Positions 4,350-55,862 of a stretch of 64,000 nucleotides of DNA are shown piece after piece; the stretch's first letter is position 1; the number at the start of each line of letters is the position of its first letter. Both the position numbers and the translations under genes were made by a program. The DNA is from Rickettsiales bacterium (GTDB lineage: Bacteria > Pseudomonadota > Alphaproteobacteria > Rickettsiales > JABSSG01): NCBI GenBank assembly GCA_013214525.1, contig JABSSG010000014.1:33232-97231 (forward strand). The letters run 5' to 3'. The notes under the pieces are model-generated. The model had not been told where the DNA came from. It saw nothing but the letters and a program-made list of their open reading frames with translations, and searched no databases.

Positions 4350-7103
4350 ATGGTATCTCATATAGATATAGCGATAGTAATTGCTTATATGTTTTTTTGT
4401 TTGGTAGTTGGTTTACTAAATTATGGGAAAATAAAAAATATACGAGATTATACGTTAGGAACAAAATCTTTTCCAACTATTGTATTAATGGTTACTACTC
4501 TCGCAACTACTCTTGGTGCTGAAAAAGTGATAGGCAATGTAGGAAAAATACATAAATTAGGGCTGACCTATATAATACCTCTAATTTTTGTTCCTTTGCC
4601 ATGGTTTATATTAGCAAAAATTATTGCACCTAATTTGCAGACATTTCATAAGCATAAATTTATTTCTTTAAGTGATATTATGGAACATTGGTATGGTGTA
4701 TTAGGGAGATGGTGTACTAATATTATATCTATATTTTTTGCTATTGGTCTTACTGCAATGAGTACGATGGTAATAGGCTACTTACTACATTATTTTCTAG
4801 GTGTTTCAGAAACCATAGGTATGGTTATCGGTCTTGCTGTTGTTACACTTTATTCGGTGTTTGGTGGTATATCCTCGGTCGCTTTTACAGATTTATTTCA
4901 AGCATTAATATTTTTTGTAGCATTACCATTAGCTTGTTTTAAAGGGCTTCAATCTACTGGAGGAATCGAAGCAATATGGAAATCATTGCCCAATAAACAT
5001 ACACAAATACATGATGTTCCTTTATTTGTCAGTTTTATATTGTTTGCATTAATACCTGCTAGTGGAATTCCTTATATACAAAGAGCTTTAATTGCGAAAA
5101 ATGAAAAACAATTCTTGAGAAGTTTTACTGGAGTAGCGATTTTGATTATACCTGTCTTAGTAATAGTGTGCCTAATAGGGTTAATAACTTACGGCAACAA
5201 TCCCAATATAGAATCTGATAAGGTGCTATATTATTTTATAAATAACCATTTGTCGGTGGGTCTAAAAGGGCTAATGATAGCAGGATTACTTGCTTTAATA
5301 ATGTCTACTCAAGATTCATATTTAAATACAGTAAGTGCGTTGCTTGCTCATGACGTTTTTAAACAAAAATGGTCTTCTTTAACTGACAGACAGGAATTAT
5401 TAATTGCCCGTGGTTCTTGTTTAGCTATTTCAATTGCTTCTATTACAATAATTTTTGTAGGCAAAGGTATTATGGAAACTATATGGTTAGTGGTGAGCTT
5501 TGCATATCCGTTAATAACAATACCTTTGATAGCAGGGTTGATTGGTGTACGCATAAGTAAACAATCGTTTGTTGTTTTGATAATATCATCACTTACTACT
5601 ATTATAATCACACGGCTCTTTACAGGTGTATTTGATACAAGAAGTATGTCAGTTGGTATGATAGCTTCAGCAATTGTTTTATATATTTTACACAAAAGAC
5701 ATAAAAGAGAATCTATATTTTCTTTGCCAAAAATTAATGTGACTCAAATGTTTGATAACTTGAGCAAACGAGTTTTAAAGAATTCTTATTCGATCCGCTC
5801 TTTATACACAGTTGGTATGGTTCTTTGTATTAATTTTTTAGTTGGTATATTTTTTGCAAATTTATATTTCTTTAATCCACTTAATGTTTCTTTAGGGGTA
5901 ATGGTGTTTTTACTCCTTATGCTATTATTAAATGAACTTTGGCATTTTTATTTGAAGAGATATTTAATTAATATTTGGAGATTTTGTCTCATTTTAGGTT
6001 TGTTATTTATTCCTTCTTACATATTTTTTGTACATGACTTTCACATTTTTTGGTTATGTAACCTTATATTATCAGCAGTCTTATTTATTGTAGTGAGTGA
6101 TATTATAATTGGTATCGCATTTATAGCAATTGCAGTCCCTCTTGGTTATTTACTGTCTCAAATCTTTTATTCAAATGGTAATTTAATAACGATTGAGTTT
6201 GCCATTATATCATGCCCTGCAATATTAATTGCAATTTCTATGCAGCTGTATGACCGTCATACTATTGCTAAAACTAGCCATAAAGAAATAACGTATGAAT
6301 TAAAAAAAATCATGCAAGAAAAAGTAATGGAATCTCTAAATATTAAAGAAGAATTTCTGAATAAACTTAATCATGAACTAAGAATACCTCTTAGCGTGAT
6401 GATTAATACATCAGATAGTATTTATGAAATGTGGGATAAGTTATCCGACAAAGATAAGAAAAAATATCTTAAAGACGTTGTTGACAACAGGAAAAGGTTT
6501 GAAAGTTATACATTAAACATTCTTGATCTTGCAGATTTAGTACAAAAAAGATTTAAGCTAAATATAAAACCTAATGTTAATTTAGTAAAACTAAGTGAAG
6601 CAGCTATTGATAAAGCAACATCACTTATTGTAGATGCTAACAAGAATCTTAAAATCAAATTAGAAGTAAAAAATGCTAAAATGGCAATTGCTAGCTGTGA
6701 TGAAAAAAGAATACAGCAAGTGCTGAGCAACTTACTATCAAATGCTATTAAATATAGTGATCATGGAATTATAAAAGTACTTATTAAACCTGCTAAAGAT
6801 AAAATAGCAATTTCAGTTTCTGATGAAGGGGTAGGAATACCAAAAAGTGAAAAGTCAAAAATATTTACGCCATTTTTTGAAAGCAGTAGAACTAAAAGCT
6901 CTGCTGAAGGTAAAGGACTTGGTTTATCTATAGCTCAAAAGATAATTACTTTACATCATGGTATTATTAAAGTGAAGGATAATGACAGCAAACATTCAGG
7001 GTCTATATTTACATTTATATTGCCATGTGAGTCTGAGGAAGTAGCAAGTGAGGATGGTTTGGCAACAAAACGTAATCTGGAAGAGTTTAAAAAAGCTGCT
7101 TAA
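4350..7103 (+). CDS. Hybrid sodium:solute symporter (SLC5/SSF) domain - 6 TM - histidine kinase, paralogue 1
   Basis: 917 aa. Residues 1 to about 470 are polytopic and SSF-like (about 13 TM). Residues about 480-640 hold six further hydrophobic helices. Then come the H-box FLNKLNHELRIPL, N-box LLSNAIKYS, G1 SDEGVGIP and G2 GKGLGLSIAQ. SD ggaggaag lies upstream of the ATG. Confidence 0.8.
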   Translation: MVSHIDIAIVIAYMFFCLVVGLLNYGKIKNIRDYTLGTKSFPTIVLMVTTLATTLGAEKVIGNVGKIHKLGLTYIIPLIFVPLPWFILAKIIAPNLQTFHKHKFISLSDIMEHWYGVLGRWCTNIISIFFAIGLTAMSTMVIGYLLHYFLGVSETIGMVIGLAVVTLYSVFGGISSVAFTDLFQALIFFVALPLACFKGLQSTGGIEAIWKSLPNKHTQIHDVPLFVSFILFALIPASGIPYIQRALIAKNEKQFLRSFTGVAILIIPVLVIVCLIGLITYGNNPNIESDKVLYYFINNHLSVGLKGLMIAGLLALIMSTQDSYLNTVSALLAHDVFKQKWSSLTDRQELLIARGSCLAISIASITIIFVGKGIMETIWLVVSFAYPLITIPLIAGLIGVRISKQSFVVLIISSLTTIIITRLFTGVFDTRSMSVGMIASAIVLYILHKRHKRESIFSLPKINVTQMFDNLSKRVLKNSYSIRSLYTVGMVLCINFLVGIFFANLYFFNPLNVSLGVMVFLLLMLLLNELWHFYLKRYLINIWRFCLILGLLFIPSYIFFVHDFHIFWLCNLILSAVLFIVVSDIIIGIAFIAIAVPLGYLLSQIFYSNGNLITIEFAIISCPAILIAISMQLYDRHTIAKTSHKEITYELKKIMQEKVMESLNIKEEFLNKLNHELRIPLSVMINTSDSIYEMWDKLSDKDKKKYLKDVVDNRKRFESYTLNILDLADLVQKRFKLNIKPNVNLVKLSEAAIDKATSLIVDANKNLKIKLEVKNAKMAIASCDEKRIQQVLSNLLSNAIKYSDHGIIKVLIKPAKDKIAISVSDEGVGIPKSEKSKIFTPFFESSRTKSSAEGKGLGLSIAQKIITLHHGIIKVKDNDSKHSGSIFTFILPCESEEVASEDGLATKRNLEEFKKAA

Positions 7104-11846: not shown

Positions 11847-13253
11847 TTAAGCTGGCTCTTTTACTTTAACAACTGGTTCTATTGGTTCTTTAATTATACT
11901 GTTAGTACCCTCATAAGTGTTTACATTTAAAAGTTTTAATTTTCTATGTAAAGCAGATCTCTCCATCCCTATAAAATTGGAAGCTCTTGAAATATTATTA
12001 CCAAATCTATTCATTTGTTCTTGTAAATATCTTCTTTCAAACATTTCTCTAGCTTTTTTTAGAGGAATAGACATAATCTCTGCGTCCATTTGTAGTACTG
12101 TAGACCTTATCTTATTTAAAAAATATAATGGCAACATACTTGTAGTAACAGTAGTTTTTCCTTGAATTTTAGCTAAAATCATTAACCATTCTAAGGTGTT
12201 TTTAAACTGTTTAACATTGCCTGGCCATTCGTAACTTCTAAATTTCTCCATTACGTCTTCGCTTATAGTTATTTTTCTTAAGTTTGAATTTTTTGCAAAA
12301 TAACTTATAAAATATGTACATAATGCACAAATATCATCTTTTCTTTCTCGTAAGGATGGTGCTGTAATCTGTACGGCACTTAATCTGTAATAAAGATCTT
12401 GAAGAAAATTTCCTTTTTTTACTTCTTTTTTTAGATCAATAGAAGAAGATCCAATTATTCTTACATCCATATTACTCTCGCGTTTCGAACTATGTTTTTT
12501 CAAAAGCTTAAGAATTTTATGTTGTAAATTGAGAGGTAATAGTCCAATTTCACTTATAAATAATGTGCCATTTCTTAATAACTCCAAAAGATTCAATCCA
12601 TTGTTAGTATCACTAAATACTTCTTGTGTTGCTTTCTCATGTAATAAAACAGAAGAATTTATTTTTATGAAGGGAGCACGTCTATTTGACTGTTTATGTA
12701 TGGTTCTTGCCACTAATTCTTTACCAGCGCCAAACTCACCTTCAATTAAAATTTTTGAAGCAGTGTTTGCTACTTTATTTATTGTAGATTTTAAACTAAC
12801 AATGGGTTGACTATTGCCAATTAATTCTGCTTTTTTTGTTATTTTCTTTTTTAGTTCTGCATTCTCCTTTTTTAATATTAAAGTTTCTGCTGCACGTTTT
12901 ACAGTCACTAAGAGTTTACTGGAAGTAAATGGTTTTTCTATATAATCATATGCACCCATCTTAATAGAGTTTACAGCAATTTCAATTGTGCCATGTCCAC
13001 TAATCATAATCACTGGAATTAAAGGATATTTGCGTTTTACTAACTCTAAAATGCCCAATCCATCCAGATTACTATTTTGAAGCCATATATCTAATAATAT
13101 TAAATTTGGCGATAATTTACTTATCTTCTCGAGTGCTTCATCGCTATTTTTAGCTGATGAACAGCAAAATCCTTCATCTTGTAAGATATCTGAAATAAGA
13201 GTGCAGATATCTTCTTCGTCATCTATTATAAGAACGGTGGTACCATACATCAT
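11847..13253 (-). CDS. ntrX: NtrX-type response regulator (REC - degenerate AAA+ - Fis HTH)
   Basis: 468 aa. REC domain (VLIIDDEEDI ... LLDIWL), Walker A GEFGAGKE, WPGNVKQFKN, C-terminal HTH ISRASNFIGMERSALHRKLK. It lies directly downstream of ntrY. Confidence 0.8.
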   Translation of the reverse strand: MMYGTTVLIIDDEEDICTLISDILQDEGFCCSSAKNSDEALEKISKLSPNLILLDIWLQNSNLDGLGILELVKRKYPLIPVIMISGHGTIEIAVNSIKMGAYDYIEKPFTSSKLLVTVKRAAETLILKKENAELKKKITKKAELIGNSQPIVSLKSTINKVANTASKILIEGEFGAGKELVARTIHKQSNRRAPFIKINSSVLLHEKATQEVFSDTNNGLNLLELLRNGTLFISEIGLLPLNLQHKILKLLKKHSSKRESNMDVRIIGSSSIDLKKEVKKGNFLQDLYYRLSAVQITAPSLRERKDDICALCTYFISYFAKNSNLRKITISEDVMEKFRSYEWPGNVKQFKNTLEWLMILAKIQGKTTVTTSMLPLYFLNKIRSTVLQMDAEIMSIPLKKAREMFERRYLQEQMNRFGNNISRASNFIGMERSALHRKLKLLNVNTYEGTNSIIKEPIEPVVKVKEPA

Positions 13254-13266
13254 ATGTTTACAGCTA

Positions 13267-15459
13267 TTAAGTTAACTCTTTTTCTCTCTCTAAATTCAAC
13301 AACATATCTTTATGTTTTAAATTAGTAGGCAGGATAATTTCAACTATTGCATTATCATAATTGCCATTCTTGATTATAAGCTCACCTTCGTGGTCATCAA
13401 CAATTTTTTTTACTATTGCAAGTCCTAACCCTGTTCCTTTTGCTTTAGTAGTAAAATATGGTTCAATAATTTTGTTTATTGAGGATTTTTTAAAACCTTG
13501 GCCACTGTCTTCTACAATAATATGTGCGGCATTAGATTTTTTATATAAAGATACGTTTATAAATTTTTCTTTTTTATGATTTATAATACCTCGTAATGCT
13601 TCCTCTGAATTTTTGATTACGTTTGTTAATAGTTGGCGTATTTGTGTCGAATCGAAACATCCTATTATATTTTTTTCTATATTTGCTTCAAATTTAATAT
13701 CTTTGCCAATAATTTTACGAGAAAAGATTACATCAGTAATTAACCTACTCAAATCTACTCTGTCAAACATAGGAGTAGGCATTCTAGCAAATTTGGAGAA
13801 CTCTTCTATTATTTCTCCTATATCTTGAGAGTGTCTTATAATTGTATTGACATACATGTTAAAATCTTTTTTATCTTTTATATATTTTGAATATTTTTCC
13901 TTAATTCTTTCTGCTCCAAGCTGTATTGGTGTTAAAGGATTTTTCACTTCATGAGCAATTTTTCGTGCAATATCAGACCAAGCTTTATATCTCTGTGCCT
14001 GAATAATCTGTGTCATATCATCAAATGCTATAATATAGCTTATAACATTATTTTGTTTATCAACATCCTTACCTACTTTAACCAGAAAAGTCAGTGCACG
14101 TCCTTTAATTCTAGATTTTACTTCTCCACTAATTTCTTTAGTTTTTGAGTTAGAGATTTTATTTATTAAACCAAGAAATTCAGGTAATAATTGGAATAAA
14201 TCTAAACTCTTTATATCAGATTTTTTCAGACCTAGCAGTTTCATACCAGATTCGTTGATAAGTGTTACTTTACGATTAGAAGAAACTGCGATAATTCCTG
14301 TAGAAACCCCCGATAATACCACCTCCATAAATTTTCTTTTTTGATCTATTTCATTATATGCATGGATCAGTTTTTCTTGTTGTTCTGATATTCTCTCAGT
14401 CATTAGATTAAAAGCTCTGGAAAGATTTGCTATCTCGTCATTTTCTGGTCCTTCAGGTAATTTAACTGCGAATTTTCATTTCTTTACTTTTTCGGTTGCT
14501 AATACAAGCCTTATAATTGGATCAAGTATAGCTTTAGAAAAAGATATGCCAATAATGCCTGCGATTAAAAGCAACACTATGGAGATCATTAAAAACGCAA
14601 AAGAAGACTTTAATTGTAATTCCATTATATTGCTTTTAATGGAATTATATTTAGTTGCAGCATTCTGGGATTGTTTTATATGTTTTACAATAGCATTGTC
14701 TATTTGCTTACCAATAACTAAAAAACTATTTGGCGTGCTATGTAAGGCTGTTATAGCACGAATTTTATTAAGTTTTTTAAATATAACAGTTTCTCCATTT
14801 GCTGCCCTTTTATAATATTCATCAGGTATTCTCTCAAGAGACAATGAAATACCAAATCTACTTCTAAGAACTGGGGCATGTCCATAAAATATAGCGGCCT
14901 CAGACATATCATTTAACTCGACAAAAGAGTTAATTACGTCAAAAAATAATTTAGGTTTAGAGGCTAAATCATGTTTAATTATGTTGTCGTCTAGTTCACT
15001 AGCAATAGATTTAGCTTTCATTTTTATCATCTCTTGATTTTCTTTAAGATATGATTCAGCTACAAGAACTGATTCTTCTAGCACTGTTGTAATTTTTTTA
15101 TCAAACCAAGATTCAACTACATAATAAAGAAAGAAATTAGCAATTATTGCTAAAATTAAAGTTGGGACACCTGAGAGCAAACTAAAAATTAATAGGATTC
15201 TTTTTTGTAATCTTGATCCATAAAGCTTTCGTTTCTTATTTATTCTACTGAAAAATATTTTTCTAAATACGAAAGACATAAGAAAAACAAAGAGGAGCAG
15301 ATCTAAAATCAAAATAAAAACAAGGTAACGATTATACTTTCCTGTGTCCCAATTGCTTTCAAGCAAGAAGAAGGTGCCTGTGAGAGACACAGCTAATAAG
15401 AGTATTAAAAACGTTGCTCTTATTTTTATGAAAGAAAAAAAGTGTTTAACTTTTTGCAT
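13267..15459 (-). pseudogene. ntrY: ntrY sensor kinase reading frame interrupted by one in-frame TGA (14476..14478)
   Basis: Track ORFs 14476..15459 (TM sensor plus start of HAMP) and 13267..14403 (PAS, H-box AHEVKNPLTPI, HATPase) are in the same frame (15459-14403=1056). The 72 nt between them have no stop and encode KFAVKLPEGPENDEIANLSRAFNL, which is the rest of the HAMP domain. Confidence 0.7.
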
Positions 15460-15876: not shown

Positions 15877-18588
15877 ATGGTATCTCATATAGATATAGCG
15901 ATAGTAATTGCTTATATGTTTTTTTGTTTGGTAATAGGGTTGCTTAAATATGGTAAGATTAAAAATATACGTGACTATACACTTGGTACTAAACCTTTTC
16001 CAACTATCGTATTAATGGCAACAACTCTTGCTACTGTAATAGGCACAGGGCGTATAATTGGTAATACAGAGAAAGTATATGAATTAGGAATAATTTATAT
16101 GATTTCTTTTATTTTTGTTCCTATATCTTGGCTTATTCTAACAAGAATGCTTCTTCCTAATATTCAAATATTTCGTAAACATAAATTTATTTCATTAAGC
16201 GATATTATGGAATATTGGTATGGTAAGTTAGGCAGATGGGTAACTAATGTCATATCAATATTGATAGCAGTTGCAGTTGCTGCAAGTAGTGCTATAGCTA
16301 TTGGCTATCTCCTGCATCACTTTTTAGGTATCTCAGAAACTATAGGCATAATTATTGGTTTAGGTGTTGTTACAATTTATTCTGCATTTGGAGGTATAAC
16401 TTCTGTTGCTTTTACTGATGTATTTCAATTTTTAATATTTTTTATAGCCCTACCTATCGCTTGTTTTATTAGTTATCAGGACACAGGAGGGCTTGAAAAA
16501 ATATGGCATTCACTACCAGAAACACATACACATATTAAAGTAGATAATATTCCTTTATTTGTTAGTTTCATATTTTATTCATCACTGCCTTATATTGATA
16601 TTTCAAGTATTCAAAGAGTTTTAATAGCGAAGGATAGGGAGCAATTATTGCGGGCTTTTATAGGGGTAGCAATTTTAACAATTCCTCTAATGATGATAGT
16701 GTGTTTTATAGCTTCAGTAACTTACCATGATAATCCTAATATTGAATCTGGTAAAGTATTGTATCATTTTATAGATAATTATTTACCTCCAGTTTTGAAA
16801 GGGTTTATGATAGCTGGGATTTTGGCAGTTATAATGTCTACTCAAGATTCTTACTTAAATACCACAGGTGTATTGATATCACATGATGTTTGCAAGCAAA
16901 TTTGGCCTTCTTTGACGGATAGACAAGAATTATTTATTGCTCGTATTTCTTGTGTTGTTATAGCTTTAATTTCTATCTCAATGATTGTTTTAACAAAGGG
17001 TATTATGGATATGATATGGATTGCTGGTAGTTTTTCAGCACCATTAGTAGCAACTCCATTAATGGCAGGACTGATCGGAGCACGAATTAATAAAAGTTCA
17101 TTTATTGGTGTAGTGATCTTTTCACTTATAGCCATAGTAATTACACGTTTTGTTACAGGAGTATTTGATACAAGAAGTCTTGCGGTTGGTATGGTAACTT
17201 CAGCTATTGTTTTGTATATCTTACACAAAAGAAATAAAGGAGAGTCTGTATTTTCTTTTCCTAGAATTAATGTGAATTTGTTATTTAATAAACTAAATGA
17301 GCAAGTATTAAATAGTTCTTATTCTATTAATTCTTTATATAGGGTTGGTGTAGTTCTTTGTGGTAATTTTTTAGTTGGAGTAGCTTTTGCAAATTTAGAT
17401 TTCTTTACTCCATTTAATGTTACTCTTATTGTTATATCAAGTTTATTGATGTTGCTTTTACTAAATGAATTCTGGAATTATAGATTAAAGAGGTATTCCA
17501 TTGATATTTGGAAGGCTTGTCTCACCATTGGTCTATTATTTGTTCCTTCTTACATATTTTTTGCACATGACTTTCATATGCTTTGGTTATGTAATCTTAT
17601 ACTGTCGACAATTTTATTTATTGTGATGAGTGATATTGTAGTTGGTATTGCATTTGCAGCAATTGCTGGGTCAATTGGCTATCTCCTTTCTCAGATTTTT
17701 TATTTCAATGTAAGTTTAGTATCAAGAGAGTTTGGAAATATTTCATGTGCTGCAATGTTAATTGCAATTGTTATACAAATATATAATCGTCATACTATTA
17801 CTAAGAATACTTATAGGGAAATAATGCGAGAAGTGGATAGAAAAACTGAAGAAAGAGCTGTAGAACTTAAGAAAGCTCTCAATATAAAAAAAGAATTCCT
17901 AAATAAATTAAGCCATGAAATCAAAAATCCTATACATAATATGCTTGCCTTATCAGAAGGCATGTATGATTCGTGGTATGAATGGTCAGAAGAGGAAAGG
18001 CAAACATTTATTAAAGGAGTGATCGATAGTAAAAAAAGTTTGATGGATTATACTTCAAGTATTCTTGACCTTGCTTTATTGGAAGAGGAAAAAATGCCTC
18101 TTGATATAAAAAAAGGAGTAGATCTTATTGATCTTGCTAAAGATGCTATTAATAGAATTTCACCTCTTGTTATAAAACAGAACAAAAATATCGGTGTTGA
18201 GTTAGAAATACAAGCCTCAAAGCCAGCAATTGTTAAATGTGATTCTAAACGAATAAGTCAAGTAATAGATAGTATATTAAAAAATGCTATTACATATACC
18301 CAGTATGGTACAATTAAACTATCTATTGATACTAAAAAAGATTATGTAAGAGTATCTATAGCAGATCCAGGAGTGGGTATACCTGACGATGAAAAGTTAG
18401 AGATATTTACCCCATTTTTTGAAGGTAGTAGAACCAAGAGTTTAGCTAGAGGTAAAGGAGTTGGACTTTCTATTGCACAAAAGATAATGATTTTACACGG
18501 GAGTACTATTCAAGTGAAAGATAATGAAAGTAAACCAACTGGGTCAGTCTTTTCATTTATATTACCATCTAAAGACCTCGAATTTTAA
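15877..18588 (+). CDS. Hybrid SLC5/SSF domain - 6 TM - histidine kinase, paralogue 2
   Basis: 903 aa, collinear with 4350..7103 along its whole length. H-box FLNKLSHEIKNPI, N-box ILKNAITYT, G1 ADPGVGIP, G2 GKGVGLSIAQ. The first 19 codons are nucleotide-identical to paralogue 1. Confidence 0.8.
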   Translation: MVSHIDIAIVIAYMFFCLVIGLLKYGKIKNIRDYTLGTKPFPTIVLMATTLATVIGTGRIIGNTEKVYELGIIYMISFIFVPISWLILTRMLLPNIQIFRKHKFISLSDIMEYWYGKLGRWVTNVISILIAVAVAASSAIAIGYLLHHFLGISETIGIIIGLGVVTIYSAFGGITSVAFTDVFQFLIFFIALPIACFISYQDTGGLEKIWHSLPETHTHIKVDNIPLFVSFIFYSSLPYIDISSIQRVLIAKDREQLLRAFIGVAILTIPLMMIVCFIASVTYHDNPNIESGKVLYHFIDNYLPPVLKGFMIAGILAVIMSTQDSYLNTTGVLISHDVCKQIWPSLTDRQELFIARISCVVIALISISMIVLTKGIMDMIWIAGSFSAPLVATPLMAGLIGARINKSSFIGVVIFSLIAIVITRFVTGVFDTRSLAVGMVTSAIVLYILHKRNKGESVFSFPRINVNLLFNKLNEQVLNSSYSINSLYRVGVVLCGNFLVGVAFANLDFFTPFNVTLIVISSLLMLLLLNEFWNYRLKRYSIDIWKACLTIGLLFVPSYIFFAHDFHMLWLCNLILSTILFIVMSDIVVGIAFAAIAGSIGYLLSQIFYFNVSLVSREFGNISCAAMLIAIVIQIYNRHTITKNTYREIMREVDRKTEERAVELKKALNIKKEFLNKLSHEIKNPIHNMLALSEGMYDSWYEWSEEERQTFIKGVIDSKKSLMDYTSSILDLALLEEEKMPLDIKKGVDLIDLAKDAINRISPLVIKQNKNIGVELEIQASKPAIVKCDSKRISQVIDSILKNAITYTQYGTIKLSIDTKKDYVRVSIADPGVGIPDDEKLEIFTPFFEGSRTKSLARGKGVGLSIAQKIMILHGSTIQVKDNESKPTGSVFSFILPSKDLEF

Positions 18589-18760: not shown

Positions 18761-19885
18761 TTATTTGTTTAACGCTCTATCTTTTTTTACTAAAGAAACA
18801 GTGCCGTTAACTAAAGAGGTAAATATATCATCTATTGTGATACCTAACCTTCTTGCGTTTGAAATATCATATACTCCATCTAAGGCTTTGCTGTGTTCTC
18901 CATGAGTGCCTCGTACAGCTAGGCTATATTTCTTAGCAATTGATTTAATGGTTTTGATGTCAATATTTTTAAGTTTTATGTGAACACTTACACGCATTCC
19001 TGTACCTATGTTTGTAGAGTCACTGTTGAGATATCCAAGTTTATCATCATGTGCAAATTTTAAATCTTTCTCTAATATATTTAGGGCATGAACAAATTTA
19101 CTATGTATTTTTTCTAAATCAGCAGTTTTTTCTAAATATATAATTCTGAGATGGTCTTCTTCGTTAATCCACACTATAAATTTTTTATCTTTACTAATGT
19201 AAGCACCTCTTCCTACAGGCCAATTATCTGCTATACCTGCGGATTGTAAGTATTTATCCTTATTCATAGGTTTAAAGATCAGATGTTCATTTACCATTTT
19301 TTTGTATTGATCTTCAGATAATGAACCTATGGAATAATATGTGCCTTGGTATTTTTTAGGTAATTCTTTTATTGCAGTAAGCACAAGATCTTTCACCTGT
19401 ATTCTTTGTTTTTTTGTCATAGAAGATGGGAAAGGGAAAGAAGATAAATTCCTTGCAACTCGTATTCTTGTGGAGATTACATTTTTGGAAAGTATTTTTC
19501 GATCTTCTTTTGTGAAATTAAATTTTACTATTTTTGTATTCTTGTTATCCAGAGAGTATGGGTCGTAGTTATGATAGTTTTTTATCGCATGAGAAAAAAT
19601 AGGACTAAACATTGTATAAGATTCTGCATCTCCTGCATAACATCCTATTTTACTGTCTGGGTTTTCTACACCACTTTTTAAAATATGGTCTAATGTGACC
19701 CCAAATTTTGTCTTTTTTTCTTTTAATACATTTCTTTCAGATTCACTTAAAATCTCAAAACCTTCTATACAAAGTGCTTTTGCGTATACCGTGTTACTAA
19801 TAACACCAGACAATAGGGCTATAGACAATAGGGTTAAAGATATATGTTTTAGATATTTAGGGGTGGATTTGAGATTTTGAAACAT
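18761..19885 (-). CDS. Arginine kinase-like phosphagen kinase (ATP:guanido phosphotransferase) with N-terminal signal-peptide-like extension
   Basis: 374 aa. SGVENPDSKIGCYAGDAESY (arginine-specificity loop), STRIRVARN, WINEEDHLRI, GTGMRVSVHIKL and VRGTHGEH..DGVYDISNARRLG parallel arthropod and Limulus arginine kinases. N-terminus: MFQNLKSTPKYLKHISLTLLSIALLSGVISNTVYAKA. Confidence 0.8.
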   Translation of the reverse strand: MFQNLKSTPKYLKHISLTLLSIALLSGVISNTVYAKALCIEGFEILSESERNVLKEKKTKFGVTLDHILKSGVENPDSKIGCYAGDAESYTMFSPIFSHAIKNYHNYDPYSLDNKNTKIVKFNFTKEDRKILSKNVISTRIRVARNLSSFPFPSSMTKKQRIQVKDLVLTAIKELPKKYQGTYYSIGSLSEDQYKKMVNEHLIFKPMNKDKYLQSAGIADNWPVGRGAYISKDKKFIVWINEEDHLRIIYLEKTADLEKIHSKFVHALNILEKDLKFAHDDKLGYLNSDSTNIGTGMRVSVHIKLKNIDIKTIKSIAKKYSLAVRGTHGEHSKALDGVYDISNARRLGITIDDIFTSLVNGTVSLVKKDRALNK

Positions 19886-20091
19886 AAGATTTTATAATAC
19901 GTTAAATTTTTATAGATATAGTCATATCAAAGCTGCGTAGTTTTGTCAATTTGTTTCATGGGTGTTAACTCATATAAACACTAGTTTTGGGTATAAGTTT
20001 AAGTCTTAAGTATGTAAGATGTATAGAACTTATCTAGCAGAATAATATTCTTGACTGATTGTTGAAAACAAAGTAGCATCTAGCTTTTAAT

Positions 20092-20128
20092 TATACTAAC
20101 CAAACTTTTTCAGGTATGCTTAGTATAT
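20092..20128. repeat. Family-1 mini-element (degenerate)
   Basis: tatactaaccaaactttttcaggtatgcttagtatat resembles the 9624..9674 mini-element with a central deletion. Confidence 0.4.
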
Positions 20129-20159
20129 GTTTAGTAATCCATTTTTTAATATTTAAGTT

Positions 20160-23805: not shown

Positions 23806-24891
23806 TTATAGTTTATGACGTTTCTTTGATCGTCTAGCTCTGGTTCTACTCCGCATATTTTGTTTTTTTAAGTTCTTTTTTATTAAAAGATATATAGGAG
23901 AATTTTTGTTTTCGGCTACATAGTCTAAAGCTGAATTGCCTGAGTTATCTAATTTTTTCAGGTTGCAGTTTTTTTTAATTAAAAAATTTGCTACTTCAAA
24001 GTTTTTCATTTTTGCAGCTATCATAATAGGAGTCATTCCCTCTTCGTTTGATAAGTTTACGTTTGCACCTTTGGAAATTAAAAATTTAGCCATATTATTT
24101 CTATTATGTAAAATTGCAGTTATAAGTAAACTATTACCTAATTTGTCTTTAACAGAAAGTAAATGGTAATTATTAACTAAAGCATGTAAAGCATCTCTGT
24201 CCCCAGTTTTAATTGATTGAAAAGCGTTATATGCTAATTGGGATAGATATAAGGGCTTTGGTAAATGGGGATTATCTACATGCACATATGCAGGTAAAGT
24301 TTGTGTTTTATAGTTAATTGCTGAAAATCTGGCTATATCTTGAATAGCTGCTTGTTCTTTAGGAGATTTTTCAATGTCTTTTAGTAATAATATTTTTTTA
24401 TATATGTTAAAACTATTGGATATAAAAGCCTGTTCTGGAATGTTTGGGTTAATGTAGTCATAAAAATAAACACTTGGGTCTTTATCTATAAAATTAGTTA
24501 TTTCTTTAATAAAGTAAGCTAGTTGCACAGTATTATAGGTAGAGTTTTTGATATCTTGCTTTTTAGGGAGAATATTTCTATCAGTAAGGGAAACGAATGA
24601 TGGATTGATTACTTTTGGTGATTTATTTAAAGGGTTTGCACAACAAAATCTATCATAAAATATGGATAGAAATAATATTACAAATAAGGATACCCATTGG
24701 ACTTGAAGGCTCCGATTTTTAAGCATGCCCCTGCGAAGGCAGGGGTTAAAAATAAAGCAACTATTCTCACATGAAAATGTCTTGAATATCGCCAATATTA
24801 TCGAATTTTCATGCTTGATATTGACTTCATTTTCTTTCTTAAAATCTCGGACTTTCCAAGGCCAATGGGTATATTTCCAAAATTTGTGCAT
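23806..24891 (-). CDS. Ankyrin-repeat protein with N-terminal hydrophobic segment and basic C-tail
   Basis: Maximal ORF is 361 aa. ANK repeats: GNSLLITAILHNRNNMAKFLISKGANVN, EGMTPIMIAAKMKNFEVANFLIKKNCNL, SGNSALDYV. The first ~67 codons lie inside repeat copy B. An alternative start, M56 (ATG 24726..24724), gives MLKNRSLQVQWVSLFVILFLSIF... The C-terminus is KKQNMRSRTRARRSKKRHKL. Confidence 0.7.
   Translation of the reverse strand: MHKFWKYTHWPWKVRDFKKENEVNIKHENSIILAIFKTFSCENSCFIFNPCLRRGMLKNRSLQVQWVSLFVILFLSIFYDRFCCANPLNKSPKVINPSFVSLTDRNILPKKQDIKNSTYNTVQLAYFIKEITNFIDKDPSVYFYDYINPNIPEQAFISNSFNIYKKILLLKDIEKSPKEQAAIQDIARFSAINYKTQTLPAYVHVDNPHLPKPLYLSQLAYNAFQSIKTGDRDALHALVNNYHLLSVKDKLGNSLLITAILHNRNNMAKFLISKGANVNLSNEEGMTPIMIAAKMKNFEVANFLIKKNCNLKKLDNSGNSALDYVAENKNSPIYLLIKKNLKKQNMRSRTRARRSKKRHKL
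24690..24872. repeat. Family-1 palindromic element, full copy B (183 bp, with nested GC hairpin)
   Basis: TIRs atacccattggacttgaaggctccga (24690..24715) and tcggactttccaaggccaatgggtat (24847..24872). Collinear with copy A, except for an extra cccctgcgaaggcagggg hairpin at about 24728..24745. Confidence 0.8.
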
Positions 24892-28542: not shown

Positions 28543-28652
28543 AAAACATGGTTTTTACACTTTGAGATAAGGTATTTTTCGTTTGTAATGCTATTTCTGA
28601 TGAGATATAACTTAGGTTACAAATTATTTAACGAAAAATATTAAAAGTTTTG

Positions 28653-30701
28653 ATGCGATATAATGATGTAGAGTTGGAATCTTCAGTTACAAATTTTTCT
28701 AAGGATTTTTTATATAGAAAACTTGCCAATTGTATACGTGTTTTAACAATTGATGCAGTAGAGCAAGCTCAATCTGGTCATCCAGGAATGCCTCTTGGTA
28801 TGGCTGATGTTGCAACAGTTCTTTTTGCAGAGTTCTTAAACTTTCTGCCAAATAATCCTGAATGGTTAAATAGAGACAGATTTATTTTATCAGCTGGTCA
28901 TGGCTCTATGCTTTTATATTCTTTGTTATATTTGACAGGGTATCCAGATATAGAACTTGAAGATATAAAACAATTTCGTCAATTACATAGTAAAACAGCT
29001 GGCCACCCAGAATGTGGTTTTTTAAAAGGAATAGAAACAACTACTGGCCCACTTGGACAAGGTCTTGCTAATGCAGTGGGTATGGAGATTGCTCGCAACC
29101 TAAATAGAGCAAAACTTGGCACAACTGAAATACTCGATCATTATGTTTATACAATTGTTGGTGATGGTTGTTTAATGGAAGGTATTTCGCATGAAGCATG
29201 TTCTCTTGCTGGACATTTACAATTGAGAAATCTAATTGTATTTTACGATAGTAATAATATCACAATTGATGGTGATAAATCTTTATCTGATTCTGAAGAT
29301 ACAAAATTGCGATTTCAAGGGTATAGTTGGTATGTTCAAGAAATAGACGGGCATGATTTTTCTCAAATAAGAAAAGCAATTCAAAATGCACAACTCAGTG
29401 AAAAACCGTCATTGATCATATGTAACACTAAAATAGCTTATGGAGCTCCAACGAAAGAAGGGAAAAGCTGTTCTCATGGTGCACCTCTTGGTGCAGAGGA
29501 AGTAATGAAGGCAAAAATAAATTATGGTTGGTCAGCAGATAAGAAGTTTTTCATTCCAGAGAGGTTATTAAAAATTTGGCGAGAAATTGGTAAAAATAAC
29601 TTAATAAGACACCAAATCTGGCAAGAAAAAATAGAAAATATTTCTGATGAAAAAAAAGAAATTTTAAATCAATTGAAAAGTTTTGAAATACCAGAAGATG
29701 ATCTAAAAAGGGTAATTTTAAATTTGAAGAAGCAATTTATTTTGTCAGATGATTCACAAGCGACTCGCAAAGCATCTGGTGTAATATTGAATTCTTTGTG
29801 GGATGTTATTCCTTTCGTAGGGGGATCAGCAGATCTCACTGAGTCAAATCATACTAACCCTAGGCATGTAGAAAGAATAAGTAAAGATAACTGGCTTGCA
29901 AACTATTTTTGTTATGGTGTAAGGGAGCACGCTATGGGTGCTATTATGAATGGGATTGCTCTATATGGTGGTGTTATTCCTTACGGAGGAAGTTTTTTAG
30001 TATTTATGGATTATATGAAGCCAGCATTGAGGATGGCTGCATTAATGAAGTTGCAAGTTATATATGTCATGACTCATGATTCAATAGGAGTAGGTGAAGA
30101 TGGGCCCACTCATCAGCCAGTTGAGCAACTCAGTTATTTGCGTGCTATACCGAATGTAAATGTTTTTCGTCCTGCTGATAGTGTTGAAACTGCTGAGTGT
30201 TGGGAGTTAGCTCTTAAAAGTAGAACTACGCCATCTGTTCTTTGCTTAACAAGGCAGAAAGTTGCATGTATACGCAAGAAAGATAATAAAAAAAATCAAA
30301 GTGCTTTAGGGGCATATATTATTTCTGAATATAAAGGAAAGCATGAAGTAACAATTTTTGCTACTGGTTCTGAAGTATCAATTGCTATGGAAGCACAGAA
30401 TATTTTGCATGAACAAAAAATAGGGACAAGGGTTATTTCTGTACCTTGTATGGAGTTGTTGGAAAAGCAAGAGGAAGATTATAAAAAAGAATTATTTGGT
30501 AATACAACTGTGAAAATTGTTATAGAAGCAGCACTCCAAGCTGGTTGGGAAAGATATCTTGATAAAGATGGAATTTTTATTGGCATGAGTAATTTTGGAG
30601 CTTCTGCTCCATGTAAAGACTTATATGAATTTTTTAACATTAACTCAAAAACTGTGGTAAGCTCTGTATTTGAGAAATTAAAGGAAGGTGCAAATTTATG
30701 A
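28653..30701 (+). CDS. tkt: Transketolase
   Basis: About 682 aa from ATG 28653 (the track uses TTG 28650). SGHPGMPLGMADV, GDGCLMEGISHEA (ThDP motif), THDSIGVGEDGPTHQP. Confidence 0.95.
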   Translation: MRYNDVELESSVTNFSKDFLYRKLANCIRVLTIDAVEQAQSGHPGMPLGMADVATVLFAEFLNFLPNNPEWLNRDRFILSAGHGSMLLYSLLYLTGYPDIELEDIKQFRQLHSKTAGHPECGFLKGIETTTGPLGQGLANAVGMEIARNLNRAKLGTTEILDHYVYTIVGDGCLMEGISHEACSLAGHLQLRNLIVFYDSNNITIDGDKSLSDSEDTKLRFQGYSWYVQEIDGHDFSQIRKAIQNAQLSEKPSLIICNTKIAYGAPTKEGKSCSHGAPLGAEEVMKAKINYGWSADKKFFIPERLLKIWREIGKNNLIRHQIWQEKIENISDEKKEILNQLKSFEIPEDDLKRVILNLKKQFILSDDSQATRKASGVILNSLWDVIPFVGGSADLTESNHTNPRHVERISKDNWLANYFCYGVREHAMGAIMNGIALYGGVIPYGGSFLVFMDYMKPALRMAALMKLQVIYVMTHDSIGVGEDGPTHQPVEQLSYLRAIPNVNVFRPADSVETAECWELALKSRTTPSVLCLTRQKVACIRKKDNKKNQSALGAYIISEYKGKHEVTIFATGSEVSIAMEAQNILHEQKIGTRVISVPCMELLEKQEEDYKKELFGNTTVKIVIEAALQAGWERYLDKDGIFIGMSNFGASAPCKDLYEFFNINSKTVVSSVFEKLKEGANL

Positions 30702-31717
30702 CTTTAAAGATAGCAGTAAATGGGCTTGGTCGTATAGGGAGATGTGTTGTGCGAGCTGTATGTGAGCAGTCATCAGAACAAATAAAGTTAGTTGCTGTTA
30801 ATGGCACTATGCCTATTGAATCTTATAAAACTTTAATAAAATATGATTCAGTTCATGGAATATTTCCACAAGAAATTAGCACTGATACTGATACGTTGTT
30901 TGTTGGTAAGAATAAAGTTAAGTTTTTTAATGAGCGTTCTTTAGGTAATATTCCGTGGGGGAAAGAAAATGTTGATATAGTGTTTGAGTGTACGGGTAAA
31001 TTTAAGGATAAAGATTCAACTGCCAAGCATTTAAAGGCTGGTGCAAAAAAAGTGATTATATCTGCTCCAGGTAAGGATGTTGATGCCACAATTATATTTG
31101 GTGTGAATAACCATTTGCTTAGAGATAATTACAATGTTATTTCAGTTGGATCTTGTACAACAAATGCATTAGCACCTCTTGTAAAAACACTTCATGACTC
31201 AATTGGTATAGAGCAGGGATATATGACCACTGTGCATTCTTATACCAATGATCAAAAAGTTTTAGATGGTAGTCATAATGATTTAAGGCGTGCACGTGCT
31301 TGCCATCTATCAATGATTCCTACAACCACTGGCGCAGCAAAAATGATAGGTGTAATTATTCCTGAACTTGCAGGAAGAATTGCTGGTTCAGCAATTCGTG
31401 TTCCAACACCAAATGTTTCTTTAATTGATTTTGTTTTTTCAGCTAAACGTGAAACTTCTAAAGAAGAAATTAATAAAATTATGCAACAAGCGTCTGAATC
31501 TTCTATGAAAAATATTGTGGCTGTTGCTAAGCAAAAACTTGTATCGATTGATTTTAATCATTCTGTTTATAGTGCAGTTTTTGATCCATTTGAAACTCAA
31601 GTGGTAGATGAAAAATTGGTTCGTGTAGTAGCATGGTATGATAATGAGTGGGGTTTTACTCATAGAATGATAGATGTTGCGTTGCTCAGTGAAACTTTAG
31701 CGATTGCATCAGTATAA
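30698..31717 (+). CDS. gap: Glyceraldehyde-3-phosphate dehydrogenase
   Basis: 339 aa. INGLGRIGR, SCTTNALAP (catalytic Cys), WYDNEWGF. ATGA overlap with the tkt stop. Confidence 0.95.
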   Translation: MTLKIAVNGLGRIGRCVVRAVCEQSSEQIKLVAVNGTMPIESYKTLIKYDSVHGIFPQEISTDTDTLFVGKNKVKFFNERSLGNIPWGKENVDIVFECTGKFKDKDSTAKHLKAGAKKVIISAPGKDVDATIIFGVNNHLLRDNYNVISVGSCTTNALAPLVKTLHDSIGIEQGYMTTVHSYTNDQKVLDGSHNDLRRARACHLSMIPTTTGAAKMIGVIIPELAGRIAGSAIRVPTPNVSLIDFVFSAKRETSKEEINKIMQQASESSMKNIVAVAKQKLVSIDFNHSVYSAVFDPFETQVVDEKLVRVVAWYDNEWGFTHRMIDVALLSETLAIASV

Positions 31718-31730
31718 GGGTAATCAAAAA

Positions 31731-32945
31731 ATGAAAGGTTTAACAAAAATAACAGAATTAGACGTTAGGAATAAGAAGGTTATTTTGAGATTAGACTTAA
31801 ACCTTCCTATAGTACAAGGAAAGATAACAGATCTATATAGGCTAGAGAGGTCATTACCAACTATCAAATATTTAATTCAGAACGAAGCTAAAGTAATAAT
31901 AATTTCTCATTTTGGAAGACCTGAAGGAAAATTTTGTAGAGAAATGTCTCTTGCTCCTATTGCTGATAGATTAAGTGAAGCACTTGCTGGTAAAGAAGTG
32001 AAGTTTTTATTGAATATTTTAGCTCCTGATGCACAAGAAAAAATCAGTTTTCTTAAACCAGGAGAAATAATTTTGGCGGAGAATCTTAGATTCCATAAGG
32101 AAGAAGAAGCTAATGATTTAGAGTTTGCAAAGAAAATTGCAAGTTTAGGAGAGTTATACATAAATGAGGCTTTTTCTTGTTCTCATAGGTTGCATGCTTC
32201 AATAGTGTCTTTACAGAAATTTTTACCAACTGCATGGGGTTTTTTGTTTGCTGAAGAGATTGAAACTTTAGAAAAATATTTAGGTAAACCACAACATCCA
32301 GTGCTTGCTATCACTGGTGGGTCTAAAATCTCCTCTAAGATTGGTTTATTAAATTCTTTGGTTAATAAAGTAGATATACTTGTTATTGGTGGAGCTATGG
32401 CAAATACTTTTTTAAAAACTCAAGGATATGATGTTGGCAAATCTTTAAGTGAATCAGATCAGATTGAATCAGTACAAAAAATTATCAATAATGCTAAAGC
32501 AAATAATTGTTCAGTGATTGTTCCAAGTGATGTTATAACGGCTTGTGATATTAATGAAAATTCGAGTTGTAAGGTAAAGAATGTATCTGAAATAAAGTCA
32601 AATGAGATGATTTTAGATGTAGGGCCAAATTTTATTTTTAATATTCTAAAATGTTTAAATATAGCAAATACTATTATTTGGAATGGTCCTTTAGGGGCAT
32701 TTGAACATACTCCTTTTGATATAGGTACTTCGACAGTAGCTCGAGCAATTGCAGGAGTCACTTCTCATAAAAATATAGTTAGTATTGCTGGTGGTGGTGA
32801 TGTTGTTTCAGCAATAAATTCTGCTAAGCTTAGCAATAGTTTTACTTATATTTCTACAGGAGGTGGAGCTTTCTTGAAATGGTTAGAAAAAGGTACTTTG
32901 CCAGTATTAAACCAAGTTACAAAGGTGTTAACTGAGACATCTTAA
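31731..32945 (+). CDS. pgk: Phosphoglycerate kinase
   Basis: The track ORF starts at 31704, inside gap. The ATG at 31731 (SD aaggg upstream) gives MKGLTKITELDVRNKKVILRLDLNLP, the usual PGK N-terminus. ISHFGRP, STGGGAFL. Confidence 0.9.
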   Translation: MKGLTKITELDVRNKKVILRLDLNLPIVQGKITDLYRLERSLPTIKYLIQNEAKVIIISHFGRPEGKFCREMSLAPIADRLSEALAGKEVKFLLNILAPDAQEKISFLKPGEIILAENLRFHKEEEANDLEFAKKIASLGELYINEAFSCSHRLHASIVSLQKFLPTAWGFLFAEEIETLEKYLGKPQHPVLAITGGSKISSKIGLLNSLVNKVDILVIGGAMANTFLKTQGYDVGKSLSESDQIESVQKIINNAKANNCSVIVPSDVITACDINENSSCKVKNVSEIKSNEMILDVGPNFIFNILKCLNIANTIIWNGPLGAFEHTPFDIGTSTVARAIAGVTSHKNIVSIAGGGDVVSAINSAKLSNSFTYISTGGGAFLKWLEKGTLPVLNQVTKVLTETS

Positions 32946-33793
32946 TTAACTTGCTCAAGCTCTGGAAGAGGAGATTTTAGCATTTTGTAATCTACGCTCA
33001 ACACTTGTAATTCTCTTTCTTGGCTTTGAAGAGTATTTCGTACTGCTTGGTCTACGGAAGTAACTGTTTTTTGTAATGCTGTAATTGGTTCTTTGCTTGA
33101 TAGATAATATCCTAGATATAATGCTGAAAATAAATCTCCAGTGCCACTAATAGGCATTGAAAAACTATGTTCTTGAGTTTTTATCATGTAGTTTGATTTA
33201 CCATTTGAAATGAATGTGTAAGAGTGGTCTGGAGTATCATTGGTAAATTTTATGCCAGTTATGATAACAATTTTTATACCTAAAGAATGAAATTTTTGAG
33301 CTATTATTTTAATGCTATTTTTGTCGATGATCTTTATCCCAGATAAAATTTCTGCTTCAAATTGGTTAGGGGTAATAATGTCTGCTTTAAGTTTTTTCTT
33401 AAAGAACTCTAATACTTCTGGTCTTACATAACAAGATGTGTTGCCTATTACTGGATCACATAGATAAATCAGATTTTCATTTTTCTTTTTAAATCTGTTC
33501 ACTGTATCTTGTACTTCTTCACATATTTCTGAGCTACCCATATAGCCAGATAGAATAGCTTGACATTTATTGATAACTTCTAATTCTTCTAATCCGAGAA
33601 TTACCTCTTTTATATGTTTTCTTGGGAAGATTTCACCTTGCCATTTTTTATAACCTGTGTGGTTAGAAAATTGTACAGTGTTTACTGGCCATACGTCATA
33701 ACCTAATGCTTGTAATGGGTAGGTAGCGGCCTTATTCCCTACATAGCCATATGCAACATGTGACTGAATCGATAAAATAGCCATTTCTTTCAA
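32942..33793 (-). CDS. pdxY: Pyridoxal kinase
   Basis: 283 aa. ILSIQSHVAYGYVGNKAA and NTVQFSNHTGY match the PdxY N-terminus. GTGDLFSAL near the C-terminus. Confidence 0.8.
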   Translation of the reverse strand: MKEMAILSIQSHVAYGYVGNKAATYPLQALGYDVWPVNTVQFSNHTGYKKWQGEIFPRKHIKEVILGLEELEVINKCQAILSGYMGSSEICEEVQDTVNRFKKKNENLIYLCDPVIGNTSCYVRPEVLEFFKKKLKADIITPNQFEAEILSGIKIIDKNSIKIIAQKFHSLGIKIVIITGIKFTNDTPDHSYTFISNGKSNYMIKTQEHSFSMPISGTGDLFSALYLGYYLSSKEPITALQKTVTSVDQAVRNTLQSQERELQVLSVDYKMLKSPLPELEQVN

Positions 33794-33823
33794 TTTTTTA
33801 CTATAGTAACTTCAGTAATGTTT

Positions 33824-33853
33824 TTCTAATCCATTACTGTGATTATTAGGGTT
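33824..33853. repeat. Solo family-2 TIR-like copy
   Basis: ttctaatccattactgtgattattagggtt resembles ttcttaatccattattggggtt with a small insertion. Confidence 0.4.
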
Positions 33854-33947
33854 AGTATGTAATATCTACTTTGATTTGTAAATAATTTATACGTAACATT
33901 TTTTTTCTAAATGTTGTGCAAGCACTATCAAGATTAAAATATTTTAG

Positions 33948-36055: not shown

Positions 36056-36058
36056 ATT

Positions 36059-40162: not shown

Positions 40163-40175
40163 TTAAGGTTTAACT

Positions 40176-55861: not shown

Positions 55862-55862
55862 T

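Follow-up and report, generated by a model that had tools for sequence, protein, structure and literature searches.

Phosphagen kinases are textbook energy buffers of the cytosol or the mitochondrion, and the role of the reactive cysteine in their active site has been debated for decades. Here we describe an arginine kinase homolog encoded in a 64,000-nucleotide stretch of DNA (hereinafter the window) from a Rickettsiales bacterium (GenBank assembly GCA_013214525.1, contig JABSSG010000014.1, positions 33,232 to 97,231 of the forward strand), in which that cysteine is replaced by an aspartate and the kinase core is preceded by a predicted export signal.

Among the closest described systems, the arthropod arginine kinases (Limulus, 1M15/1BG0; crustacean, 8YX0 and 4BG4) have the same two-domain fold at ~35–43% identity and share with the window kinase a specificity loop of equal length with D62, S63 and Y68, as well as E225, E314, R126, R229, R280, R309, R330 and N274. 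In contrast to them, the window kinase has a predicted cleavable signal where their first cytosolic helix would sit, Asp for C271, Ser for P272 and Cys for I67, and throughout its clade R193 is Lys. The cytosolic bacterial kinases of cluster B (Desulfotalea psychrophila, Myxococcus xanthus and Desulfobacterium) are single-domain enzymes with 41–44% identity that lie on the same side of the tree (support 0.85) but differ from the window kinase in the absence of a signal peptide, an unaltered C-P motif and no cysteine in the IGC motif. With the protein-arginine kinase McsB, the common ground is the catalytic domain PF00217 together with a CPTN(x)GT motif, but McsB has no N-terminal guanidino domain and phosphorylates proteins; identity with McsB was rejected, as the NCBIfam McsB models score the window kinase at 71–154 bits (best 153.7 versus a cut-off of 385) against cut-offs of 381–679, and its N-terminal domain is present. 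Members of its own clade, namely Deia_00864 (QED23651.1) of Ca. Deianiraea vastatrix and the copies from Ca. Bandiella and a Waddliaceae genome, show the same signal-then-Cys architecture at 41–61% identity but keep Cys-Pro. Mitochondrial creatine kinase is a structural homolog (TM ~0.78) that offers the precedent of a phosphagen kinase placed between two membranes, beside an adenine-nucleotide antiporter and porins; however, it uses creatine, is an octamer, has a mitochondrial presequence and runs from ATP to phosphocreatine, and the likeness drawn below is a functional analogy only. Finally, engineered mutants of the reactive cysteine (C271A/S/N/D in Limulus arginine kinase and C278G/S/A/N/D in chicken mitochondrial creatine kinase), whose activity is reportedly strongly reduced, are altered at the same position, with Asp as in the window kinase and Gly as in its paralog P0004. 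These are single laboratory substitutions, whereas the natural variants come with P272S, A296G and A299V, or with G313E.

The Gene and Its Place in the Family

The initial annotation had read the open reading frame (ORF) as a eukaryote-type arginine kinase from a set of motifs, every one of which we found on the minus strand in a product of 374 amino acids: SGVENPDSKIGCYAGDAESY (residues 71–90), NEEDHLR (241–247), LGYLNSDSTNIGTG (283–296) and RGTHGEH..GVYDISNARRLG (325–348). Public databases already contain an identical protein, NRA73498.1 ('MAG: arginine kinase [Rickettsiales bacterium]'; MAG, metagenome-assembled genome), encoded on a 238-kb scaffold assembled from a marine metagenome. Because a stop codon closes the reading frame three codons before the ATG, and the only other start-type codons fall within the hydrophobic core (TTG20 and TTG25) or the conserved domain (ATG92), the start codon is secure and there is no usable alternative; as had been claimed, the next Met is thus deep inside the domain. 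The GC content of the gene equals that of the genome (~31%).

The protein matches the Pfam models PF00217 (1.5e-59, 201.2 bits, cut-off 22.4) and PF02807 (3.8e-18, 66.1 bits, cut-off 25.7); PDB arginine kinases match it at E=1e-72 to 1e-74, Limulus arginine kinase at E=8e-72 and the two-domain Anthopleura arginine kinase at 2e-145. An AlphaFold2 model built from a 24-sequence alignment of its clade has a mean predicted local distance difference test score (pLDDT) of 90.6 and a predicted template modeling score (pTM) of 0.84, and Foldseek with this model gave arginine kinases as the best matches (TM 0.76–0.80), the top one being 1SD0 (Limulus C271A). Judged from the sequence, the protein belongs by descent beyond doubt to the phosphagen kinase family. 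The sequence does not by itself place it among the active EC 2.7.3.3 enzymes, since the active-site signature of the family is not matched: in place of C-P-x(0,1)-[ST]-N-[ILV]-G-T, which we take to be PROSITE PS00112, it reads D-S-T-N-I-G-T.

In the family tree, the exported clade described below falls inside a 49-sequence group (support 0.85) with trypanosome, krill and tardigrade kinases. The same group holds Desulfobacterium- and Bacteriovoracaceae-type bacterial kinases, with an Oceanithermus/Nitratifractor group apart; in the scheme of Suzuki 2013, as summarized in PMC11492440, the two are cluster B and cluster A, respectively. The eukaryotic label thus stands for the two-domain architecture and for the grouping with animal and trypanosome kinases, but the nearest relatives are all bacterial, and 'animal-type' is fair for architecture and broad cluster only. 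Phosphagen kinases are also less rare in bacteria than had been supposed: 2052 database proteins match at E<=1e-20 and, among the matches listed, many come from bacterial MAGs.

An Aspartate at the Position of the Reactive Cysteine

In an ungapped HMMER alignment to the crayfish arginine kinase 8YX0, D289 and S290 pair with C271 and P272. The same alignment equates R142, E243, R247, R298, R325 and E330 with R126, E225, R229, R280, R309 and E314, respectively, and D77, S78 and Y83 with D62, S63 and Y68, with the specificity loop SGVENPDSKIGCYAGD aligning gap-free with SGVENLDSGVGIYAPD. A MAFFT alignment of 113 single-domain homologs, to which the counts below refer, has 111 Cys, one Asp (the window kinase) and one Gly in the reactive column, and 112 Pro and one Ser (again the window kinase) in the adjacent one. 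Both alignments bear out the replacement of the cysteine that had been read by eye from the letters, and Asp289 is unique among the 113 single-domain homologs examined. The remainder of the catalytic set, comprising D62, S63, Y68, R124, R126, E224, E225, R229, N274, R280, R309, E314 and R330, is present in full, leaving C271D and P272S as the only differences; these catalytic columns, those of E225, E314 and R126/229/280/309/330 among them, are invariant or nearly so across the homologs, and the window kinase has the consensus residue in each. The Arg/Glu set whose fate the initial annotation had left to a structure-guided comparison is accordingly retained, on what the AlphaFold2 model gives as an arginine kinase fold. 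As all substrate-binding and catalytic residues are retained, the kinase is probably still active.

Cys271 is a thiolate that accepts a hydrogen bond from Nη1 of the substrate guanidinium, donates negative charge and, with Glu225 and Glu314, polarizes the guanidinium (PMC11075012). The crystal structure of the C271A mutant (1SD0) contains a chloride ion. Gattis (2004) and Furter (1993) reportedly found low but real activity in Cys-to-Asp and Cys-to-Gly mutants of arginine kinase from Limulus and of mitochondrial creatine kinase from chicken, and negative charge, be it Asp or bound chloride, is said to be what counts. Asp289 may hence supply the negative charge in place of the Cys271 thiolate. 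The changes unique to the window kinase at positions 289, 290, 296 and 299 lie within an 11-residue Cys loop (binomial P ~0.002, for a segment chosen post hoc), the altered neighbors of the Asp being P272S, A296G and A299V; this clustering suggests local compensation, whereby P272S and the two further changes would re-fit the loop.

The gene as a whole departs from the consensus at only three of the 46 columns conserved at >=95% (E165K, C289D and P290S), its distances to outgroups are those of the sister sequences, and it has 16 unique substitutions as compared to 15 in the Cys-keeping Waddliaceae sister; faster evolution of the Cys-less copies, looked for by distances and unique substitutions, was not seen. 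By these sequence measures, the gene is not decaying in general. The same observations bear on an alternative akin to the catalytically altered binder of the initial annotation: catalysis would have been lost with the cysteine, leaving a periplasmic pseudoenzyme, perhaps a sensor or capture protein, that binds arginine, phosphoarginine or a nucleotide and does nothing more. Such a binder would explain the loss of a Cys kept in 111/113 homologs together with a Pro kept in 112/113, and would be in keeping with the absence of the Cys from both paralogs of the genome, with the strong impairment of engineered Cys mutants (as reported by Gattis 2004 and Furter 1993) and with the recurrence of creatine kinase CK-B C283S in cell-biology papers, reportedly as an inactive control. 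It would leave unexplained, however, why the five phosphate-binding arginines, both catalytic glutamates, N274 and the specificity-loop residues are kept without excess divergence, as E225, E314 and the full Arg set are needless for mere binding. Moreover, where a kinase domain with Asp at the Cys position is truly degenerate, several of these residues are gone, and no transporter or signaling partner is conserved beside the gene in any relative. We therefore regard a binder as unlikely, and as less likely than retained catalysis.

Four candidates for a natural precedent of Asp in this column with an otherwise intact site were rejected, having lost E314, R229, R309 or other residues. These proteins (P0128, P0130, P0142 and P0144) are phosphagen-kinase-like, probably eukaryotic, multi-domain polypeptides of 1447–1816 amino acids with one Asp-at-Cys domain each, and those domains look like pseudokinase domains by their sequence. 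A representative-library search returned mostly multi-domain eukaryotic kinases, and further Asp variants sought in GTDB genomes and metagenome scans were not found.

The Predicted Signal Peptide

The N-terminus reads MFQNLKSTPKYLKH-ISLTLLSIALLSGVI-SNTVYA↓KALC (the arrow marking predicted cleavage), with K6, K10 and K13 in the n-region, an h-region spanning I15–I29 and SNTVYA as the c-region. Assigned by heuristic architecture and one hydrophobicity measure, this segment displays the positive n-region, the 10–15-residue h-region and the small residues at −3 and −1 (V-Y-A↓K) of a Sec substrate of signal peptidase I (SPase I). The hydrophobicity measure is 2.4 for the kinase, as compared to 2.3–3.7 for exported proteins of the same genome and <1.5 for six cytosolic ones, and its n-h-c architecture matches the signals of TolB (ISPISNA↓VTK), a TolC-like protein (SITAHA↓VTL), VirB9 (LPSFA↓VKE) and a rotamase (NICFA↓KDR) from the same window, which also encodes SecA. 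In the AlphaFold2 model, residues 10–30 form a separate helix (pLDDT ~71), with the mature domain starting from about residue 38. Two other types of export substrate were rejected: a lipoprotein processed by signal peptidase II, as the lipobox [LVI]-[ASTVI]-[GAS]-C is absent (K-A-L-C, with Leu at −1), and a twin-arginine translocation substrate, as residues 1–50 contain no Arg and hence no twin-arginine motif. By its sequence, then, the kinase carries a Sec-type signal.

Given that the segment is rather long at 35 residues, and that the paralog P0004 functions, if at all, without one, it might be argued that it is an uncleaved anchor or an annotation artifact and that the catalytic domain is cytoplasmic. 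This is very improbable: the positive charges before the h-region predict an N-in orientation with the domain outside, after the core come helix-breaking residues (G27, S30 and N31) and the V-Y-A site, clade members conserve this same site in the form (A/V)-x-A↓[KRQE]-P-x-C, the Deianiraea ortholog is TMHMM-negative, and there is no alternative start. Since a Sec signal in a Gram-negative cell ends in the periplasm, and lipoprotein variants in the clade agree with this, the periplasm is the probable destination. The signal does not imply action in the host cytosol; the initial annotation had suggested that an exported copy could act on the host arginine/phosphoarginine pool.

A Clade of Bacterial Arginine Kinases with Predicted Export Signals

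The proposed Sec signal was upheld by its architecture and its conservation in relatives, but it is not peculiar to the window kinase. A hydrophobic N-terminus, a Cys 3–4 residues past a site of the A-x-A type and, in IGCYAGD, a Cys specific to the clade occur together in 21 sequences, whereas 80 have none of the three. In a bootstrapped neighbor-joining tree these sequences form a clade of 25–28 members (bootstrap 0.74–0.87), 22–23 of them with signals, within which the five-member subclade of the window kinase has 100% support. The carriers include Ca. Deianiraea vastatrix, Ca. Bandiella euplotis/woodruffii, a Waddliaceae (Chlamydiota) MAG, several Rickettsiales MAGs and two lake MAGs mislabelled 'Rickettsia typhi'; every extra member recovered from GTDB genomes or JGI metagenomes carries both a signal and Cys-Pro. 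Lipobox-like signals of the form [LIV]-x-S-C are found instead in P0011, P0030, P0075 and P0093 and in no other members, and constitute a second, independent kind of export signal in the clade. In P0011 (520 amino acids) the lipobox signal is accompanied by a low-complexity insertion of ~150 residues, rich in Ser, Thr, Asn and Glu, between the N-terminal and catalytic domains. From this distribution, the export signal reads as an ancestral trait of the clade.

The exported clade is previously undescribed: a search for literature on exported bacterial arginine kinases found no paper. A 2024 review of the family lists bacterial enzymes with signals unmentioned (PMC11492440). In the supplement of the Deianiraea genome paper, Deia_00864, whose gene coordinates are those of clade member P0029, is a 'putative arginine kinase' that is SignalP-positive and TMHMM-negative; the word 'arginine' is absent from the main text of that paper, the kinase being only listed in a table.

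As for the cysteines of the exported members, a rule of even numbers was unsupported, with counts of 2 (n=2), 3 (n=13) and 4 (n=8), and the mean Cys content of signal-bearing members equals that of cytosolic relatives. A disulfide between Cys39 (CysA) and Cys82 (CysB) is a weak idea with conservation alone in its favor, and is further weakened by a Cys one column off being common in cytosolic kinases (35/81).

A Signal-less Paralog with Glycine at the Same Position

P0004 (NRA74217.1; locus L003, 10001–11026) lies on scaffold_20 of the same assembly and is 67% identical to the window kinase. The tetranucleotide composition of its scaffold correlates with that of the window at 0.94, as compared to 0.85 between the window's own halves and 0.31–0.84 for the loci of other relatives, and its GC content matches too (0.30 versus 0.31); the two genes are thus almost certainly paralogs in one genome. 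Translation of P0004 begins immediately ahead of the conserved Cys; stop codons lie directly upstream, and there is no signal. It has Gly (GGG) in the reactive column and, alone among the 113 homologs, Glu at the otherwise invariant Gly313 (G313E), adjoining the catalytic Glu314. In both paralogs, then, a carboxylate close by has taken the place of the thiolate, though in different ways (C271D; C271G with G313E). The path Cys (TGY) to Gly (GGN) to Asp (GAC) is possible in single codon steps. P0001, P0002 and P0004 form a trichotomy (shared derived states 3, 2 and 1; bootstraps 0.37, 0.14 and 0.11), in which P0002, a TARA Oceans sequence, retains Cys; this branching is compatible with one Cys loss or with two.

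That both paralogs are altered in active-site columns which are invariant elsewhere (C271D/P272S/E149K in one, C271G/G313E in the other) could also signify relaxed selection after duplication, the loss of the Cys being a first step to a pseudogene; that the position beside fusA is not common to a sister genome with 90% EF-G identity would fit such a relic. Yet a 374-codon ORF and its signal peptide have stayed intact in a 31%-GC genome in which stops arise easily, evolution has been no faster than in the sisters, the GC content of the gene is that of the genome, and the substitutions are chemically coherent rather than random, with a carboxylate gained in both paralogs. We accordingly consider decay quite improbable.

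A Proposed Periplasmic Role

We propose, at a probability of about 0.5, that the window kinase is a Sec-exported periplasmic arginine kinase homolog, cut after VYA35, which is thiol-free and still catalytic, and whose probable reaction is phosphoarginine + ADP to ATP + arginine. The Sec pathway would deliver it to the periplasm, where it would still bind arginine or phosphoarginine and Mg-nucleotide and carry out a thiol-free, probably slower, phosphate transfer. Host phosphoarginine would enter through the outer membrane, the ATP formed would feed an inner-membrane ATP/ADP translocase (Tlc/NTT), and the arginine would be taken up. This would be the mirror image of mitochondrial creatine kinase with the adenine-nucleotide carrier, run in the reverse direction. 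A periplasmic kinase is sensible only where nucleotides and phosphagen lie outside the inner membrane, which points to a host-associated role. ATP/ADP translocases are classically found in Rickettsiales and Chlamydiae (Schmitz-Esser 2004, as cited in the Deianiraea genome paper), and an intracellular lifestyle of the present organism is plausible from its Rickettsiales label and from the type IV secretion system (T4SS) genes and ankyrin-repeat protein of the window. Ciliates, in whose cilia phosphoarginine is abundant, are the hosts of Deianiraea and Bandiella. The genome of Deianiraea encodes DsbB as well as an ATP/ADP translocase, tlc (Deianiraea genome paper).

A bolder extension, which we offer only tentatively and consider rather doubtful, is that of phosphagen piracy by the clade as a whole: Sec-exported periplasmic kinases in energy-parasitic Rickettsiales and Chlamydiota would make importable ATP and arginine from host phosphoarginine and the ADP expelled by the translocase, with the two paralogs of the present genome having independently moved from thiolate to carboxylate.

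The Deianiraea ortholog has also been seen in another light. In the supplement of the Deianiraea paper it is a 'putative secreted effector', and a kinase that leaves the cell after Sec, by TolC, outer-membrane vesicles or another route, could drain or buffer host ATP or phosphoarginine in the cytosol, the vacuole or the medium, akin to the nucleoside-diphosphate kinases secreted by some pathogens. The label, however, went to all proteins scored as SignalP-positive and TMHMM-negative, with Skp, LptD, DegP, LolA and VirB9 among them. Similarly, while a gene for a TolC-like outer-membrane factor lies 5.5 kb off, T4SS and ankyrin genes occur in the window, and the kinase gene is mobile among host-associated bacteria (transposase-flanked in Bandiella and Waddliaceae), a Sec signal by itself takes a protein no further than the periplasm, and four clade members are lipoproteins and so membrane-anchored. 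Furthermore, a host with its own arginine kinase would gain only the same equilibrium from a second one. We hold release beyond the periplasm to be improbable.

Several observations weigh against the periplasmic, catalytic role that we favor. Engineered Limulus C271D, from the work of Gattis et al. in 2004, is said to have retained only a small fraction of activity, and all other exported clade members retain the Cys. Nor can the missing Cys be put down simply to an oxidizing periplasm, as the cytosolic P0004 lost it too. No ATP/ADP translocase gene was found in the ~90 kb of the genome read, no named EF-G relative of the organism exceeds ~78% identity, and the window has glycolytic, purine and pantothenate enzymes beside the T4SS and ankyrin genes. 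Finally, a GC-rich exported subgroup (P0012–P0020; contig GC 0.61, with a large hybrid sensor kinase) is probably outside Rickettsiales, and export is thus not tied to known intracellular bacteria.

Genomic Context and Mobility

The features of the kinase gene and of the window are collected in Table 1. The inverted repeat that follows the kinase stop is likely, by its sequence, a (bidirectional) terminator; a simple terminator scan missed it, the loop being long. On its far side, a convergent gene for a CbrA-like sensor kinase ends 173 bp from the kinase gene. It is one of two large paralogous sensor kinases (4350–7103 and 15877–18588, both on the plus strand), in which a sodium:solute-symporter domain is fused to HisKA/HATPase; an NtrY/NtrX two-component pair (11847–15459, minus strand) lies between them. 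The TrbL/VirB6-like protein, VirB8, VirB9/CagX, the ankyrin-repeat protein and the TolC-like factor read as a set of components for interaction with a host. The metabolism encoded in the window is richer than that of the classical reduced Rickettsiales.

Table 1. Coordinates of the kinase gene, its parts and other features, in window numbering
Coordinates	Strand	Feature	Remarks
1673-4204		TrbL/VirB6-like protein	843 aa
18708..18748	.	Perfect 10-bp inverted repeat GTATAACCTG/CAGGTTATAC, then T-run	Directly after kinase stop, before convergent sensor-kinase gene
18761..19885	-	Arginine kinase homolog, complete ORF, exported (predicted)	374 aa; = NRA73498.1
18776..19396	-	C-terminal catalytic domain, PF00217 match	aa 164-370; Pfam
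18893..18913	-	RGTHGEH	Arg309 = R325; catalytic Glu314 = E330
19001..19021	-	D-S-T-N-I-G-T versus family C-P-[ST]-N-[ILV]-G-T	Asp289 (GAC) at Cys271; Ser290 (TCT) at Pro272
19145..19165	-	NEEDHLR	Catalytic Glu225 = E243; phosphate-binding Arg229 = R247
19583..19726	-	N-terminal guanidino-substrate domain, PF02807 match	aa 54-101; Pfam
19616..19675	-	Specificity loop SGVENPDSKIGCYAGDAESY, of arginine kinase length	D62/S63/Y68 kept (Limulus numbering); Cys82 'CysB' at I67
19769..19771	-	Cys39 'CysA'	4 residues past predicted cleavage site; kept in 21/23 signal-bearing clade members
19781..19885	-	Predicted Sec/SPase I signal peptide	aa 1-35; cleavage before K36 (alternative AKA↓L38)
19886..20159	.	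Divergent intergenic region kinase/fusA	TTGACA-17 nt-TATGAC 5' of kinase ATG; no obvious Shine-Dalgarno
23806-24891		Ankyrin-repeat protein	361 aa
25390-26742		TolC-like outer-membrane factor	5.5 kb from kinase gene
28650-41306		Transketolase, GAPDH, PGK, IMPDH-like, GMP synthase, ribonucleotide reductase	
54742-57429	-	Pantothenate/CoA cluster	panB, panC, panD, type III pantothenate kinase
58383-59075		VirB8	
59072-59839		VirB9/CagX	

No shared synteny was found among the loci of the window kinase, P0004, Waddliaceae, Bandiella, Deianiraea and P0014. The Bandiella copy (L007, 8001–9098) is located among transposases on a 72.6-kb replicon of Ca. Bandiella euplotis (CP110821.1) that also has Fic and TraT aboard, and the Waddliaceae MAG copy (L005, 8001–9170) lies beside DDE transposases; these transposase-flanked copies suggest horizontal spread among protist-associated bacteria. 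In a relative whose EF-G is 90% identical (L177; ctg6668_2x_l, ERZ25068685), neither a kinase nor a remnant of one was found beside fusA. Nucleotide homology to the window runs from ~116 bp upstream of fusA to the fusA stop, and the flanking genes are wholly different, by which genome order in this lineage is fluid; the kinase gene moves. With no kinase beside its fusA, this relative offers no date for the Asp.

Implications

Annotation pipelines call such proteins 'arginine kinase', 'protein-arginine kinase' or 'hypothetical protein', leaving both the signal and the altered active site unflagged. The Asp variant and its Gly/Glu paralog, with sites otherwise intact, constitute a natural experiment on the reactive cysteine of phosphagen kinases. 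If phosphagen piracy were to hold, charge rather than the thiol would be what this cysteine contributes, and an old question would have been settled by evolution. It would also mean a new route of energy and arginine acquisition for symbionts and parasites of protists and invertebrates, by which host phosphoarginine would be exploited besides ATP.

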